The notes under the pieces: model-generated
Databases searched by the model: none
Told to the model about the DNA's origin: nothing
The model's input: the letters and a program-made list of their open reading frames with translations, nothing else
Position numbers and translations under genes: made by a program
In this document: positions 16,008 to 57,648 of the stretch, in pieces
Layout: the number at the start of each line of letters is the position of its first letter
Position numbering within the stretch: the stretch's first letter is position 1
Origin: Candidatus Latescibacterota bacterium
Lineage (GTDB): Bacteria > Latescibacterota > UBA2968 > UBA8231
Length of the DNA: 64,000 bases
Assembly: GCA_965206595.1 (NCBI GenBank)
Contig: OZ242214.1
Coordinates: 5,728,001 to 5,792,000, forward strand
Reading direction: 5' to 3'

Positions 16008-16091
16008 TGCGGAAGGGGGGACTCGAACCCCCAAGCCCGTTAGGGCACCAGATCCTAAATCTGGCGCGTCTGCCAGTTCCGCCACTCCCGC
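16008..16091 (-). tRNA. tRNA-Leu (anticodon TAG), CCA not encoded
   Basis: Minus strand GCGGGAGTGGCGGAACTGGCAGACGCG CCAGA-TT-TAG-GA-TCTGG, long variable arm, GGGGGTTCGAGTCCCCC T arm, discriminator A. Confidence 0.96.
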
Positions 16092-53863: not shown

Positions 53864-54532
53864 CTAATCGCCGGTAATGGGCGGATGGTCGACCTCCAGG
53901 CTGCCGGCGCCGGTAGTATCGGGTACGTCCCCCTCGTCGTGCCAAGCGGCGCGAATCCGCTCCAGTTCCAGCCCCTGCTCTGCTGTCAGCATGGCCTCGA
54001 AAGCCATGCGGTGCTCCTCCAGCAGGCCGCCCGGGTCCACGAGACCGGATGCCTCCGCCGCGGCGTAGCGGGCGCGCTGCCGCTCCAGAAGATCGAGCCA
54101 GCGGCGCTGCTGCTGCTCCGTGAGCTCCAGGGCGTCGGCAAGGTAACCGGGTTTCAGCCCGCCGGGTGGAGCGGGGATCATGCGTTCCTCGATGAACTCG
54201 CGGGCTCGCGCCAAAAACAGGCGCTGGTCCTCCGACAGAATCCGGTCGCGCTCCGCGGTGTGCGCGCGCAGGGCACGGCGAAATCGCTCCCGCCCCTCTC
54301 CGGGCGTCAGCATCCCTTCCTCGACCTGCCGTCTCACGGACTTCACTTCCCACTCCAGGGCAGCGCGCAGATCCCGCAGGCTGACTTCCTGGTTCTTCGT
54401 CAGGTTGAGCGCCTTCCGCACCCGCTGGCGGAAACGCTCCGGGTCGAATCGCTCCCCGCCCTCCTCTCCAAGTTGTGGAAGGGACGGCGCGGAAACGGCG
54501 AACACCAGAAATGCAATCAGTACGCGTGTCAT
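53864..54532 (-). CDS. Exported helical protein, Spy/CpxP-like
   Basis: Signal peptide; LNLTKNQ, ILSEDQ, LELTEQQ, MLTAEQ (LTxxQ-type motifs). Confidence 0.6.
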   Translation of the reverse strand: MTRVLIAFLVFAVSAPSLPQLGEEGGERFDPERFRQRVRKALNLTKNQEVSLRDLRAALEWEVKSVRRQVEEGMLTPGEGRERFRRALRAHTAERDRILSEDQRLFLARAREFIEERMIPAPPGGLKPGYLADALELTEQQQRRWLDLLERQRARYAAAEASGLVDPGGLLEEHRMAFEAMLTAEQGLELERIRAAWHDEGDVPDTTGAGSLEVDHPPITGD

Positions 54533-54699
54533 TCTCCCGAGCCTGGATCGTCTCTATGCAGCAGGCCGCCCTTCCGCCCCGAGTCGGTCCGTCCGGCCGC
54601 CGGACCGTTCATGGCGGTACCGTCGATGAATATAGGCAGGAGAGGGAGAACTTGAACGAGTTCCTGCGAGCACTGAAATTCTGGCACCAGGTTTCCCTT

Positions 54700-56367
54700 A
54701 TGACTGAACACCTTCCCGCGCTGGCGCGCCTCTGTTTTCGCGTTCCCCCAGAGCGCATGTCCGAGTTCGAGAGCGCCTTCGAGAGCAGGCTGCTGCCGCG
54801 ACTGCAGGACCGCGGTCTCACCCCGGCAGCCGACCTCGGCCGCCCCACGGTTCCCGGGGTCTTTCACCGGCTGTTCCCCCTCGAGGAGACAGGGCAGATA
54901 ACACGGGTCAGCGTCGATCTTGAGGCGGACGCGGACTGGGCGGCGGCGCTCGATGAAATCGGGGGAGATCTCGGCGCGACGATTTCCTGCACCTTCCACA
55001 GCTATCTCGCCGCCGGCGTTCAGGGGCGCCGCGTCGATGTCGACGAATCGACCGAGGGCCGCTGGACGACCTACACCACCGCCAACCTCGTTTCCGGCGA
55101 CCTCGTCACCTGCATTCTGCGCGACAGCCGGCAGCGGTTCTGGTTTACGACCGCCCACGCCGGCACCACCATGTTCGACGGTAACCAGTGGCACGACTTC
55201 GGACCGGAGACTGGACTGCCTGTCGACCGCTGCTGGGCGCTGTTCGAAGGTAGCGAGGGAGAGATCTGGTTCGGCTCTCACCGCAGCGGGGTAACCCGGT
55301 TCGACGGCGACAGCTGGATGTCGTTCAGGCAGGAAGACGGCTTGCCCAGCAACAGCGTGATTTCCGGATACCAGGACGGACAGGGGAGGCTCTGGTTCGG
55401 ATCGGACGTGTCGGAAGCGGGAGAGGGACTCGCCTGCCTGAACGGGGATTCCTGGACCCTCGTAACCGTCGCCGACGGCCTTGCCGACAATCGCGTCAAG
55501 TGGATCACCCAGGACCGCGACAACCGCCACTGGGTCGGGACCGCCGGAGGGGTTTCGGTTTACGACGGATCGGGGTGGCAGACCTACGACACCGGGGACG
55601 GGCTCCCCGGAAACTGGGTCGAAACGATTCTGCAGGATCGCGAAGGAGATATGTGGGTCGCCACGGACCGCGGCCTCGCCCATTTCGACGGCGTCGAGTG
55701 GACGGGGTACACGGCCCAGGACGGGCTCCCCGGGAGCTGGGTGACCGCGGCCTTTCAGGACAGCCGCGACATTCTCTGGTTCGGAACCTTGAACGCCGGC
55801 GTCTGCTGTTTCGACGGGGAGACCTTCCAGACGCTTAATCACGAAGATGGCCTTTCCGGGGATGCTGTCTGGTGGATCTACGAGGACGAGACGGGGGACC
55901 TCTGGTTCGCGACCGACGGCGGGGTGTCGCGCTATCGCCCGCCGGAGCCGGATCCTCCGGCGGTGAAACTGAATGCGGTTACCGCCGACAGGCGCTACGA
56001 GCAGTTCGACGACCTGGTTCTTCCGGCGTCGGCCGACCTCGTCGCCTTCGAGTTCGACGGGGAGAGCCCGCACACCCGTCACAGCGGCCTGGTGTACCGG
56101 CACCGGCTCGTCGGCTGCGACGACGAGTGGCGCACCACGTACCGGCGCCGCGCCGAATACAGCTATATAGAGCCGGGCACCTACAAATTCCAGGTGCAGG
56201 TTGTAGACCAACTCCTCGACTACTCTCCCATCCTCGAGACCGAGTTCACAGTGCAGGACCCGCAGGGAGACCGCATCGGCGAACTCGAAGAAAGCGTAGA
56301 CGAGCTGTCGCGCCGGCTCGAGGAGGCGAACCGCAGGCTGCGGGACGCCGGTCTTCACCAAGCATAA
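54700..56367 (+). CDS. Two-component-regulator beta-propeller + Y_Y_Y protein with N-terminal alpha/beta domain and no output domain
   Basis: Repeated DGLPxNxV..I.QD..G.LW.GT..G; YRHRLVG...Y.YIEPGTYKFQV; short C-terminal coiled coil; ATG 54700 inferred. Confidence 0.82.
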   Translation: MTEHLPALARLCFRVPPERMSEFESAFESRLLPRLQDRGLTPAADLGRPTVPGVFHRLFPLEETGQITRVSVDLEADADWAAALDEIGGDLGATISCTFHSYLAAGVQGRRVDVDESTEGRWTTYTTANLVSGDLVTCILRDSRQRFWFTTAHAGTTMFDGNQWHDFGPETGLPVDRCWALFEGSEGEIWFGSHRSGVTRFDGDSWMSFRQEDGLPSNSVISGYQDGQGRLWFGSDVSEAGEGLACLNGDSWTLVTVADGLADNRVKWITQDRDNRHWVGTAGGVSVYDGSGWQTYDTGDGLPGNWVETILQDREGDMWVATDRGLAHFDGVEWTGYTAQDGLPGSWVTAAFQDSRDILWFGTLNAGVCCFDGETFQTLNHEDGLSGDAVWWIYEDETGDLWFATDGGVSRYRPPEPDPPAVKLNAVTADRRYEQFDDLVLPASADLVAFEFDGESPHTRHSGLVYRHRLVGCDDEWRTTYRRRAEYSYIEPGTYKFQVQVVDQLLDYSPILETEFTVQDPQGDRIGELEESVDELSRRLEEANRRLRDAGLHQA

Positions 56368-56399
56368 AAAAACCGGGCGCGCCGCTGCGACGCGCCCGG
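56366..56399 (-). terminator. Rho-independent terminator oriented for a minus-strand transcript
   Basis: CCGGGCGCG-N9-CGCGCCCGG followed by T7 on the minus strand. Confidence 0.75.
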
Positions 56400-56467
56400 G
56401 ATACCTCGGTAACCGGCGGGTAAGGCCGGTTCCGTCCAGGTGATCGACCACCTGGTGAATCCGAAGG

Positions 56468-56506
56468 TCAGGTGGTCGACCTCCTTAAGGGTATTCTACT
56501 ACTCAC
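56468..56506 (-). CDS. Putative 12-aa peptide (MSSRIPLRRSTT)
   Basis: AAAGGAGGTGGTCT then GTG AGT AGT AGA ATA CCC TTA AGG AGG TCG ACC ACC TGA. Confidence 0.4.
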   Translation of the reverse strand: MSSRIPLRRSTT

Positions 56507-56667
56507 AGACCACCTCCTTTCTATTCGGCTCCGGGCCCTCGGCGCTTACCGGTGCCTTGAACCCGTGCTCGTTCATTTAGGCCGGCGCAGCGCTATCGGT
56601 TTTGAACAACCGGCCATTTGGCGAGATGCCAGAAACGGAAACGGCCTTCGTTTCCGTTGCCTTTCCA

Positions 56668-56697
56668 AATATAAACAGGGCGAAAAAACAGAGTCAA
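56668..56697 (-). promoter_or_regulatory. Putative sigma70 promoter
   Basis: -35 TTGACT (56697-56692), 18-nt spacer, -10 TATATT (56673-56668). Confidence 0.55.
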
Positions 56698-56757
56698 CAG
56701 CTTTTTTGGCCCCCCGTCCCAGTGCCGCAATTCTCGCAACTCCAAGTCCTGCAATCG

Positions 56758-57648
56758 CTACTGGTTCAGCGAATCCATTGTTGTCGAGAGCCCGAGGGCG
56801 AGCTGCCGGCCAGCGGGGAAGTTCCTTCCCCCCAGACTCTGACGCACCGCCAGCTCGAGGAGCGCGTTCCCGGGAAGCGAAAAGGAAAGCGCCGGCGCCA
56901 GGTAGGTGATGCGCTTGATCTGCGTCCTGCTGGGAAAGCCGAAGTCCGTCCCCGTCCGGCCGCGCAGCATCTGCAGCTTGAGGGCAAGCCCGACCCTGTC
57001 CCCGACGTCTCCTCCCGCTTCGAGGTCGATCATCCACTCGTCCCCCGGGTCGCGGAGGATCTCCTCGTTTTCGGTGCGCACCCGATAGCCGACATCGGCG
57101 TTGGCGTACAGCGGCAGCGGCCAGAAGGAACGGCCGGCCTGCAGGGTGAAGTCGAAGTCCCACTGGCCTTCGCCCACCGGTATCAGGCCGTCCTCGTTGC
57201 GGAACTCCCCCGTCGGCATCTTCACCGCCGTCTTCACAGTGAAGACCGCGGGGGTTTGGAACGCCCGCCACTTCGCCAGCAGGCGCAGGTCGCTGAAGCC
57301 GCTGTCTCCCACCGGGTCGAGGTGGGTGGCGTCGTCGAACTGCTGGTCGAACCAAGGCACCTGAAAGCCGAGGTCGAGACGGTCGCTGGCGCCGAAAAAT
57401 CCCTCGGCGAACACCGCCATCGAGTCGTACTCCCCGTTGAAGCGATAGGGCCGCCGGCTCCCGGCCTCGTGCATCCGGCCCGTGAACTCCTGGGCGTTGA
57501 TGTACCATTCCCGGGCGTGCTGACGGAACCAGGTGATCTTGCCCCAGGCGCTGCCGGCGGGAAGGGTCCAGGCGCCGGCGCCGGCCGCGTCGGGAACGAG
57601 AATTTCCGCGACGGCGAACAAGGTCACTGCCCACTGCTTCCTATACAT
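56758..57648 (-). CDS. Putative outer-membrane beta-barrel protein (MetA-pathway/transporter-like)
   Basis: Signal peptide, AWTLPAG, SGFSD, KMPTG, PVGEGQWD, alternating beta-strand pattern; ATG 57648 inferred. Confidence 0.65.
   Translation of the reverse strand: MYRKQWAVTLFAVAEILVPDAAGAGAWTLPAGSAWGKITWFRQHAREWYINAQEFTGRMHEAGSRRPYRFNGEYDSMAVFAEGFFGASDRLDLGFQVPWFDQQFDDATHLDPVGDSGFSDLRLLAKWRAFQTPAVFTVKTAVKMPTGEFRNEDGLIPVGEGQWDFDFTLQAGRSFWPLPLYANADVGYRVRTENEEILRDPGDEWMIDLEAGGDVGDRVGLALKLQMLRGRTGTDFGFPSRTQIKRITYLAPALSFSLPGNALLELAVRQSLGGRNFPAGRQLALGLSTTMDSLNQ

Follow-up and report, generated by a model that had tools for sequence, protein, structure and literature searches.

The minus strand of the window (the whole 64,000-nucleotide stretch of DNA analysed here) carries a transcription unit of ~300 nt between 56697 and 56366. 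Sequence inspection located on this strand every feature that the initial annotation had listed, including a promoter, hairpins, a ribosome-binding site, a short ORF, an 11-bp inverted repeat and a terminator (Table 1). The promoter-like site is the only one in a scan of 55800-57300, where 0.1 would be expected from shuffles, and the predicted transcription start lies near 56661 (minus strand). Comparable sites, matching 8-10 of the 12 consensus positions, are located 46-238 nt upstream of the Shine-Dalgarno (SD) sequence in 31/32 relatives' loci. At the other end, six of the eight consensus pairs of the terminator show compensatory changes among 29 relatives. The 305-nt RNA has a predicted fold of -137.1 kcal/mol (z = -4.24), and none of 100 shuffles was as stable. 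As also noted initially, no gene follows the terminator on the minus strand. The next gene, on the plus strand at 54475-56367 and encoding Reg_prop/Y_Y_Y domains, is convergent with the RNA, and its stop codon lies within the T-run. The locus, which is single-copy in the window's genome, is a stand-alone gene for a discrete structured RNA with its own promoter-like site and terminator, both conserved in relatives.

Table 1. Features of the RNA gene, in the order of transcription (positions in the window)
Feature	Position	Strand	Description and basis
Sigma-70-type promoter-like site	56668..56697	-	TTGACT-N18-TATATT; 10/12 consensus positions
Structured 5' domain	56523..56661	-	~140 nt; folding, conserved blocks among close genera
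First 5' hairpin	56658-56634	-	AACGGAAAC / GTTTCCGTT, loop GAAGGCC; opens the 5' domain
Extended SD (segment 1)	56508..56522	-	AGAAAGGAGGTGGTC; complementary over 15 nt (one G.U) to the 16S 3' tail GATCACCTCCTTTCT
Micro-ORF	56468..56506	-	GTG start, 12 codons, TGA stop; predicted product MSSRIPLRRSTT; translation and comparison
Hairpin H, 5' arm	56469..56486	-	MFE structures; reaches the second base of the stop codon
Internal SD-like motif	56486-56479	-	AAGGAGGT; in hairpin H 5' arm
Segment 2 (anti-SD-like)	56477-56470	-	GACCACCT; in hairpin H 5' arm
Inverted repeat, 11 bp	56479-56469 with 56454-56444	-	Sequence inspection
Hairpin H, 3' arm	56436..56455	-	Pairs with segment 2
Segment 3 (SD-like)	56455-56446	-	CCAGGTGGTC; in hairpin H 3' arm
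Segment 4 (anti-SD-like)	56445-56436	-	GATCACCTGG; in hairpin H 3' arm
Variable hairpin	56411..56431	-	AACCGGC-CTTACCC-GCCGGTT; sequence inspection
Intrinsic terminator	56366..56399	-	12-bp GC-rich stem 56399-56373, 3-nt loop, T7 56372-56366; terminator search

In 14 close genera the loop of the first hairpin is kept while its stem varies, and the 5' domain contains further conserved blocks; in other genera this domain differs in length and sequence. Since its alignment yields a weak consensus (-6.2 kcal/mol), we claim no structure model for it. The hairpin in front of the terminator is variable in sequence and missing from 5/29 relatives, and is therefore dispensable.

The RNA gene is abundantly expressed, judged from contig depth over its 5' half in close relatives. 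The data are unstranded metatranscriptome contigs of a single study, and they come from relatives of 95-99% identity rather than from this strain. Contigs of 161-186 nt over 56497-56646 reach depths of 718, 441 and 554 in runs X2, X3 and X4, and contigs of neighbouring genes in the same runs have depths of 2-5. A second relative contributes low-depth contigs (6-16) in X1, X2 and X4, and no RNA-library contig covers 56980-57800. High-depth contigs are missing over the locus in run X1 and over 56366-56496 in general, which are gaps in the contig data and not evidence of absence. The high-depth contigs thus span only the 5' domain up to the start of the ORF. They end where hairpin H begins, so the abundant species could be a processed 5' fragment; alternatively, this end could be an artefact of assembly or reverse transcription.

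The SD was compared with the 16S 3' tail of the window's own genome. Complementarity of 15 nt to this tail occurs at four sites in the 7.05-Mb genome, the SD among them. One of the other three is the rDNA antisense and two are rich in G.U pairs; the SD is the best complement of the 16S tail in the genome outside the rDNA. The duplex between the two is predicted at -27.0 kcal/mol, which agrees with an earlier suggestion that the RNA binds ribosomes. The motif GAAAGGAGGTGGTC is unchanged in 28/29 aligned relatives, and in the remaining one a G replaces the first A. That this organism uses SD sequences is seen from 2972 filtered long ORFs, in which GGAG/GAGG/AGGA peaks 7-fold between -14 and -9 relative to the first start. 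The E. coli 16S tail has GAUCACCUCCUU in common.

The SD is followed by a micro-ORF, which is present in frame in 29/29 relatives. In 44 distinct cores its length is 30, 33, 36, 39 or 42 nt, always with the frame kept. TTG starts predominate (33, against 10 GTG and 1 ATG), as do TGA stops (41, against 2 TAA and 1 TAG), and a single genus has all three stop codons at one and the same position. The sole exception among the 18 metagenome copies listed is variant L180, in which TGG replaces the stop and five further codons are read. The ORF has what is expected of a translated small ORF, namely SD spacing, a start codon, a frame kept through indels and a stop kept through substitutions. Judged by its start, its frame over five length classes and three stop codons at one site, the ORF is conserved as an ORF. 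The peptide is not. The predicted products, as read from lists of translated ORFs, have 9-13 residues, are rich in Ser, Thr, Gly and Arg, and lack a hydrophobic helix. Because the frame of the conserved GGAGG differs by clade (AGG AGG, GGA GGT or GGG AGG), the same conserved nucleotide block is read as LRRS, AGGE or TGRL. An N-terminal Met-Ser-Ser is common, with Met-Glu-Ser in one genus, and one relative (L011) uses the synonymous non-adjacent Ser codons TCT AGC. An ORF that is kept while its peptide is not suggests that translation itself is selected, not the product. The RNA would therefore also be a real messenger, predicted to be translated and functionally 'empty'. Programmed frameshifting or readthrough of the prfB/dnaX kind was rejected for the 44 sequences. 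No +1 or -1 extension is conserved, the open length after the stop ranges over 2-534 codons (+1) and 2-127 codons (-1), and the alternative frames meet early stops in many of the sequences.

The 3' half of the ORF and the sequence after it can fold in several ways. Segments 2 and 3 form the 2:3 helix of hairpin H, which is 92.5% paired in the alignment with three pairs changed on both sides; both-side changes fill 20 cells versus 7.6 +/- 2.6 in shuffles, and 0/500 shuffles are as high. The competing state, 1:2 plus 3:4, is 99.3% paired in 28 distinct relatives, and its 3:4 helix is 99.5% paired with an invariant sequence. The mutually exclusive folds proposed in the initial annotation are thus real, with compensatory changes in 2:3. 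In addition, the 3' arm of hairpin H can form a 7-bp hairpin on its own (CCAGGTG / CACCTGG). Among 44 sequences, the best predicted state is 2:3 in 35, 1:4 in 6 and 1:2 plus 3:4 in 3, and the mean energies are -32.0, -28.7 and -26.7 kcal/mol, respectively. Hairpin H is the predicted ground state, backed by covariation, and holds the last ~six codons and the stop codon in its 5' arm. All four segments are invariant, in a manner that leaves the 1:2, 3:4 and 1:4 pairings each possible. As their sequence is invariant, these three pairings carry no covariation of their own. The ground state is on average 3-5 kcal/mol more stable than the folds that sequester the SD; given this difference and the invariance of those folds, switching is something we infer rather than observe.

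The search for homologues that had been proposed at the outset found the RNA throughout one family. A covariance model detects one copy each in 58/151 genomes of the phylum. Of the 63 other genomes in the window's family, 57 have a single copy of the 3' core, which is far beyond chance, and 17/18 genera of the family carry the RNA. The six family genomes with no match are drafts of 170-780 contigs, and 0/87 genomes in 13 other Latescibacterota families match. The gene is single-copy and nearly universal within one family of uncultured Latescibacterota. Looser searches gave less. A pattern scan of the genome collection returned 35 loci, of which L021, L026, L034, L049 and L050 are chance matches at ordinary genes and L023 and L027 are uncertain analogues that reach only ~23 bits with the covariance model. 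In metagenomes the pattern was too loose, matching at least 120 stretches, so membership was decided by the covariance model, which recognised 18 family members among the 80 loci listed. A BLAST match (L017) was rejected, being 28 nt inside a coding region from a family in which the covariance model finds the RNA in 0/2 genomes. No neighbour or cis-target is conserved across genera. In 13 relatives the downstream genes differ and are often on the opposite strand, a result that rests on the lack of shared clusters because ORF calls in the highest-GC loci are partly wrong-strand shadows. Since the flanking genes vary among genera and no alternative-frame extension is conserved, the RNA probably acts in trans or on itself.

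The RNA belongs to no described family that we could identify. At the Rfam gathering score, the locus has no match (the window's only match is a tRNA elsewhere), nor do 17 relatives' loci, in line with the term 'undescribed' in the initial annotation. With Rfam 15 at E<=10, the best real-looking match at the locus is CC2171, at 17.4 bits versus a gathering score of 75. 6S RNA had been named initially as a family to which the RNA might turn out to belong. It is a long irregular hairpin with a central bubble; the fold predicted here has no end-to-end helix, and RF00013 matches neither the locus nor the genome. This model is insensitive, as the control was positive in only 5/14 genomes. A tmRNA has a tRNA-like domain and a tag ORF with neither SD nor start codon, and there is one per genome. 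The micro-ORF has both, and the genome's own tmRNA lies at G000:C1:832698-833051 (188.5 bits). CsrB/Rsm-type sponges occur with CsrA/RsmA and present many GGA motifs in hairpin loops. Here the GGA motifs are located in the SD-like segments, not in loops, and a search of the single-contig genome for CsrA (PF02599) was negative, with a control that matched 3/14 genomes. An Hfq-dependent sRNA was rejected as well, as the genome gave no match to Hfq (PF17209). A classical transcription attenuator combines a leader ORF, alternative folds that include the terminator and a regulated operon on the same strand. In our RNA the terminator lies outside the alternative folds and the downstream gene is convergent and not conserved in the 13 relatives, which bears out the initial view that this is not a classical attenuator. 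In erm/cat leaders the fold masks a second SD and the start codon of a downstream gene; after segment 3 there is no conserved start codon or ORF, and alternative frames are not conserved. What remains of the initial reading, an undescribed sRNA or small-peptide system, is the discrete structured unit with a switchable ribosome-binding site and a small ORF; its type I toxin-like version is not supported, as discussed below.

In our best reading, to which we give a probability of about 0.5, the RNA is a stand-alone, translated, ribosome-actuated switch. In the ground state, the SD would be free and would bind a 30S subunit very tightly. The translating ribosome would have to melt hairpin H before reaching the stop codon. 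On termination it would cover segment 2, and the internal GGAGG would then lie 6-7 nt upstream of the P-site codon, a spacing like that of initiation. The released 3' arm may snap into the 3:4 hairpin. When the ribosome departs, segment 2 could capture the SD (1:2), so that the site would be shut until the RNA refolds. Ribosome traffic would thus toggle the RNA between a ribosome-accessible and a self-locked state, and the RNA may act as a switch or sensor actuated by ribosomes; it might also buffer free 30S subunits.

Several of the same observations would suit simpler or different roles. The SD, strongest in the genome with its 15 nt and -27.0 kcal/mol, the weaker TTG or GTG starts in 43/44 cores, the very high RNA-library depth and the unconserved peptide would be expected if the RNA were only a tether or sponge, whose SD holds 30S subunits to stabilise the RNA or to titrate free 30S. 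The micro-ORF would then merely give the bound ribosome a way to run off and be recycled, the segments serving only to tune access to the SD. Taken as a whole, this account is a minor but real possibility; it leaves unexplained why the stop codon lies inside the covarying hairpin H and why four mutually complementary segments are invariant. A '6S RNA for the ribosome' is another reading of low probability. Here an abundant housekeeping RNA would offer a perfect initiation site and dock 30S or 70S by pairing over 15-16 bp with the 16S tail. Only the synthesis of a throw-away peptide of 9-13 residues would release and reset it, melting hairpin H so that the anti-SD-like internal copy of the 16S tail re-captures the SD. 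The invariance of two anti-SD-like segments could instead reflect base-pairing with mRNAs, as C-rich loops of RsaE/RoxS or 6C RNA bind and repress SD regions of mRNAs. The seeds (GAYCACCT, CCACCTGG) would repress mRNAs at their SD regions, with the SD-like segments and the ORF controlling whether the seeds are masked. An independent, abundant transcript with a terminator suits such a trans-acting sRNA, and the masking of both segments in cis in every predicted state can be read in its favour. By the same token, the seeds are never single-stranded in predicted folds. With a seed identical to the 16S tail there would be no target specificity, the genome has no Hfq that we found, and the conservation of frame and stop codon would have no reason. 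We regard this role as unlikely.

The remaining alternatives look to the peptide. We judge it quite improbable that the effector is a micropeptide of 9-13 residues, made abundantly from the best ribosome-binding site, and that the RNA structure does no more than control its production. Start, frame and stop are conserved, the N-terminus is frequently Met-Ser-Ser and L011 encodes Ser by synonymous codons, but the clade-specific residues follow the frame of the motif, the length varies, one genus has Met-Glu-Ser, and the neighbourhood has no conserved genes for modification or export. Less probable still is an orphan leader-peptide attenuator that senses charged Ser/Thr-tRNA. Stalling in the Ser/Thr-rich ORF would pick 1:2, 2:3 or 3:4, as it does in thr or trp attenuators, and the released RNA would act like rnTrpL, an attenuator RNA that acts in trans according to one source (PMC7968998). 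The four consecutive segments do follow this logic, and the ORFs contain many Ser and Thr codons. However, ACC ACC in segment 2 dictates several of these Thr codons. Moreover, the 3:4 hairpin is not a terminator, the terminator being 40-90 nt further on and outside the alternative folds, and no biosynthetic gene follows. Type I toxins are hydrophobic or membrane-active peptides, usually of at least 19 residues, with an antisense or overlapping antitoxin RNA. Anti-SD segments that sequester the SD are described for type I toxin mRNAs (PMC6733600), and those in and after the small ORF here resemble them. Nevertheless, a toxin mRNA whose translation is held off by SD sequestration can hardly be upheld. 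The predicted peptides are short and polar with sequences that shift with the GGAGG frame, the predicted ground state leaves the SD free, no antisense (plus-strand) promoter-like site was found at the locus, and the gene is single-copy and family-wide with vertical-looking clades.

If the RNA acts as a ribosome-actuated switch or as a buffer, it would give bacteria a new means of sensing or titrating their translation capacity, and it would be a compact natural RNA device actuated by translation. Independently of this, the RNA adds a well-supported gene family to a candidate phylum that has no cultured model and for which our literature search found no described regulatory RNA. Its combination of features is unusual: the genome's strongest ribosome-binding site, a conserved 'meaningless' micro-ORF and four segments, all invariant, that are either copies or complements of the 16S tail. 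This architecture points to regulation centred on the ribosome, not on a particular gene. As the 16S tail is almost universal, the RNA is testable in vitro with E. coli ribosomes even though its hosts are uncultured.

Compared with known systems, the RNA shares parts with several. The leader-peptide switches of trp/thr attenuation and the erm/cat leaders also have a very short ORF followed by segments that pair 1:2, 2:3 or 3:4; which fold forms depends on where the ribosome stands on the ORF, and one segment is SD or SD-like, as in erm leaders. Unlike them, our RNA has no regulated gene after it and no conserved neighbours, its 3:4 hairpin is neither a terminator nor a mask of a start codon, all its segments copy or complement the 16S tail, and it is an abundant stand-alone RNA with a large 5' domain. 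The dual-function sRNAs SgrS/SgrT, RNAIII/hld and SR1/SR1P combine a structured RNA with the messenger of a small ORF, and like ours they are small independent transcripts with a terminator. Our RNA differs in its unconserved peptide and in an ORF made up of SD-like and anti-SD-like motifs, beyond which no base-pairing seed is conserved.

Two further systems resemble the SD itself. The Rfam consensus of the sRNA CC2171 (RF01867), from Alphaproteobacteria, starts with GAAAGGAGGUGAUCC and then GUG, and ends in a GC-rich terminator. One study reports its expression by Northern blot in Methylorubrum, with the condition of action described as unknown (10.1101/2022.01.24.477521). The low-scoring match to our RNA rests on the SD and the terminator, across phyla, and the CC2171 consensus lacks the repeat architecture of SD and anti-SD. 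A perfect SD used for a purpose other than a useful protein is the STAB-SD of Bacillus thuringiensis cryIIIA mRNA, GAAAGGAGG, which reportedly binds 30S and stabilises the mRNA. It has no start codon and protects downstream mRNA, whereas our RNA has a conserved ORF and no downstream cistron.

The likeness to 6S RNA is one of function, and we infer it by analogy. Both would be abundant, housekeeping-like RNAs that mimic the ideal substrate of a core machine: 6S RNA mimics an open promoter for RNA polymerase, and our RNA would mimic a perfect initiation site for the ribosome. Both would also be remodelled by a short product, the pRNA made on 6S RNA and a peptide of 9-13 residues on our RNA. The two have no relation in sequence or structure, and the partner here would be the ribosome and not RNA polymerase. 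Should the analogy hold, the RNA would represent a new class of riboregulators, ones that gauge free ribosome capacity or buffer it.

The minus-strand element is very probably a real, conserved and independent RNA gene. The initial annotation listed its parts accurately: all of them are found, in the order it gave, and a scan recovers both the promoter, the sole site in 1.5 kb where 0.1 would be expected, and the terminator. The 305-nt RNA has a predicted folding energy of -137.1 kcal/mol (z = -4.24). It was also right that no gene follows the terminator on the same strand, the neighbour toward low coordinates being convergent. The stop codon of this neighbour lies inside the T-run of the element, so the terminator hairpin may end both transcripts.

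Features of the element and related loci (plain numbers, window positions; G000:C1, contig of the window's genome; SD, Shine-Dalgarno site)
Feature	Position	Strand	Basis or remark
Promoter-like TTGACT-N18-TATATT	56697-56668	-	sequence reading
First hairpin	56658-56634	-	sequence reading
Further GC-rich structured stretch, ~110 nt	between first hairpin and SD	-	
SD, AGAAAGGAGGTGGTC	56522-56508	-	sequence reading
Segment 1, AGGTGGTC	within SD		nearly invariant
12-codon ORF, GTG start	56506-56468	-	sequence reading
Segment 2, GAYCACCT	last two sense codons and T of stop		nearly invariant
11-bp inverted repeat	56479-56469 / 56454-56444	-	
Segment 3, CCRGGTGNT			nearly invariant
GATCACCTGG	56445-56436	-	
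Segment 4, CCACCTGG			nearly invariant
Second hairpin	56431-56411	-	
Terminator, 12-bp stem, then T7	stem 56399-56373	-	sequence reading and scan
T-run with stop codon of convergent gene	56365-56372		
Convergent gene	54475-56367	+	Reg_prop/Y_Y_Y domains
tRNA, 84 nt	16008-16091	-	54.4 bits
50-nt repeat copies	G000:C1 near 293461, 968539, 3267920	+	
50-nt repeat copies	G000:C1, offsets 3801348, 4910133	reverse	
L009, copy in a relative	G016:C2:66683-66794		56.9 bits (covariance model)
L023, MAG locus	L023:366-573	+	
L027, MAG locus	L027:315-514	-	

The window's genome, a single contig of 7.05 Mb with 63.7% GC (window, G000:C1:5728001-5792000), holds one copy. BLAST against 40 relatives matched in 19 of 41 genomes, the window's own included, and beyond the genus only the 3' 165 nt, from SD to terminator, can be aligned. 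Scanning 185,579 species genomes for the pattern gave 35 loci. The element itself accounts for 28 (16 being duplicates of loci already collected), two are uncertain members, and five were rejected as chance matches at ordinary genes. The MAGs with these 28 loci are labelled Candidatus Latescibacterota, Gemmatimonadota/-etes, Planctomycetota or unclassified. With a covariance model built on the 91 positions of the 3' core, exactly one copy was found in 58 of 151 sampled genomes of the phylum. The window's family, its own genome excepted, carries it in 57/63 genomes and 17/18 genera, the six without a match being drafts of 170-780 contigs; the model found no copy in any of the 87 genomes sampled from 13 further families. 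Clustering of the sequences follows genus, a pattern suggestive of vertical inheritance. Flanking genes are common only inside genus-level groups, and the gene downstream is often on the opposite strand. In 31 of 32 loci examined, a promoter-like site matching at 8-10 of 12 positions lies 46-238 nt 5' of the SD, and six of the eight consensus terminator pairs show compensatory changes.

The loop of the first hairpin, GA(A/G)GGCC-like, is kept in several genera on a stem of wholly changed sequence (columns 76-100 of the 5' domain alignment, A3), which hints at a conserved loop contact. L009 retains SD and ORF; the sequence past its stop is replaced, with no segment 3 or 4 and no terminator nearby. 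An ORF of this type, with its segments intact, is present on two metagenome contigs (L196 and L163), so the L009 copy looks disrupted or rearranged.

RNA data came from four runs (X1-X4) of a single sponge metatranscriptome study, whose contigs cover about a tenth of the 2.5-kb query. In X2, X3 and X4, one contig each of 161-186 nt spans 56497-56646 (5' domain, SD and ORF start) at depths of 718, 441 and 554; these are unstranded contigs from close relatives, each with seven differences from the window. The neighbouring gene reaches a depth of 2-5, no contig covers 56980-57800, and X1 lacks the high-depth contig. The contigs stop ~11-13 nt past 56497, at the onset of a long hairpin. Possible reasons are RNA processing, differences between strains, or a stable stem that is poorly reverse-transcribed.

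Initiation in this organism is SD-led: among 2972 long ORFs filtered by GC3, GGAG, GAGG and AGGA show a 7-fold peak in the interval -14 to -9 relative to the first start. The 16S rRNA ends in GGATCACCTCCTTTCT, and the element's SD is a 15-nt complement of this tail with a single G.U. Only four GGAGG sites genome-wide reach 15-nt complementarity, G.U pairs allowed; one is rDNA antisense and two are G.U-rich, without a start codon. The predicted duplex with the tail is worth -27.0 kcal/mol, versus -9.5 for a bare GGAGG. GAAAGGAGGTGGTC is identical in 28 of 29 aligned relatives; in the remaining one the first A is replaced by G. Elsewhere in the genome, outside the window, a 50-nt sequence beginning in an ATG-containing SD-like context recurs unchanged in at least five copies; it is probably where a multi-copy insertion-sequence gene starts.

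An in-frame ORF follows in all 29 of the first distinct sequences. In 44 distinct cores it measures 39 nt (35), 42 nt (3), 33 nt (3), 36 nt (2) or 30 nt (1), starting with TTG (33), GTG (10) or ATG (1) and ending in TGA (41), TAA (2) or TAG (1). This count leaves out non-member loci, L009 and L052 (3' part replaced) and four loci of one genus, which, read separately, begin with ATG 4 nt later and have an ORF of 30 nt ending in TGA (1), TAA (2) or TAG (1). Among the metagenome matches listed, the model confirmed 18 copies, 11 of them new, and 17 keep the stop. The only exception seen among these matches, L180, has TGG instead, extending the ORF by five codons to an in-frame TGA 15 nt on, inside segment 3. 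ORF length falls into five classes, each a multiple of three, and all three stops interchange at one position; both facts argue for translation, and judged from these sequences the micro-ORF is likely to be translated. The frame of the conserved GGAGG block differs by clade (AGG AGG, GGA GGT, GGG AGG) and its residues differ as a result; one genus begins Met-Glu-Ser in place of Met-Ser-Ser. This points to selection on the nucleotides and on translation as such rather than on the peptide made. Extensions of the ORF in the +1 or -1 frame are not conserved.

The four segments can pair in several ways. RNAalifold picks helix 1:2, enclosing the ORF, with 3:4 and the terminator; these pairs are 99.3% kept, with zero covariation. 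The alternative 2:3 is 92.5% kept. Both partners differ in three of its pairs (UA/GC, CG/AU or UA, CG/UA), and its compensatory cells number 20 versus 7.6 +/- 2.6 in shuffles (0/500 as high); slid controls pair at 25-51%. In the window's RNA, 2:3 and an internal SD-like AGG paired to the CCT of segment 4 form a 16-bp hairpin, predicted at -28.4 kcal/mol as a duplex. Constrained folding of 44 cores gave 2:3 as best state in 35, 1:4 in six and 1:2 plus 3:4 in three, with mean energies of -32.0, -28.7 and -26.7 kcal/mol. As the best-scoring fold, 2:3 would be the ground state, with the SD free and the ORF end and stop codon buried in a long helix; SD-sequestering states are predicted a few kcal/mol above it. 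That the four segments stay invariant in an otherwise drifted family is best accounted for by a common partner that does not itself vary, the 16S tail, and a need to keep all cross-pairings. The internal GGAGG lies 9-10 nt 5' of the stop and hence 6-7 nt 5' of the codon in the P site when the ribosome terminates; this spacing falls within the 6-11 nt between main GGAGG and start codon.

In the cycle we propose, the free SD would dock a 30S subunit very tightly, and the translating ribosome would melt the long hairpin. At the stop codon it would cover segment 2, and the internal GGAGG may pair anew with its 16S tail; the released 3' arm would fold into 3:4. Once the ribosome has gone, segment 2 could hold the SD shut (1:2) for as long as the RNA takes to return to its ground state. 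Such an RNA would serve as a gauge or buffer of ribosome traffic. This particular switch or sensor mechanism is tentative; to the overall reading of the element we give a probability of about 0.5. Possible outputs are 30S titration, exposed anti-SD-like seeds, RNA stability and a role of the structured 5' domain. By analogy, the element might be a 6S-like decoy for the ribosome, which we consider unlikely. No CsrA and no Hfq turned up in the window's genome.

Rfam 15 at gathering score gives no match to the element in the window or in 17 relatives' loci, so the check proposed in the initial annotation yields no known family. The 6S family, which it had named as an example of a known family whose match would refute the idea, gives no match by its model, an insensitive one that found the control in 5 of 14 genomes. 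The sole Rfam match in the window is a tRNA with a long variable arm, whose anticodon loop reads as class II. A tmRNA identity was rejected, the genome's own tmRNA sitting at another locus. The best real-looking permissive match, CC2171, fails as a family assignment, with 17.4 bits where the cut-off is 75. Literature searches, at the level of titles and abstracts, brought up neither such an RNA nor any Latescibacterota regulatory RNA. Two MAGs under other taxonomic labels (L023, L027) carry the same 14-nt SD, then a 10- or 12-codon ORF with an internal GGAGG-like motif and a hairpin holding CACC and the stop codon; L023 has a near-consensus promoter 46 nt upstream. They score only ~23 bits and may be distant or convergent analogues.

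CC2171 (RF01867), an Alphaproteobacteria sRNA of unknown function, is the closest formal look-alike in Rfam: the consensus given there opens with a perfect 16S-tail complement and then GUG, and the element, too, has a perfect SD followed by GUG. CC2171 may itself be a small-ORF RNA of this general kind that has gone unnoticed. The element would work like a leader-peptide switch, but without a cis-regulated gene, and it resembles the dual-function sRNAs, from which it differs in that its peptide is not conserved.
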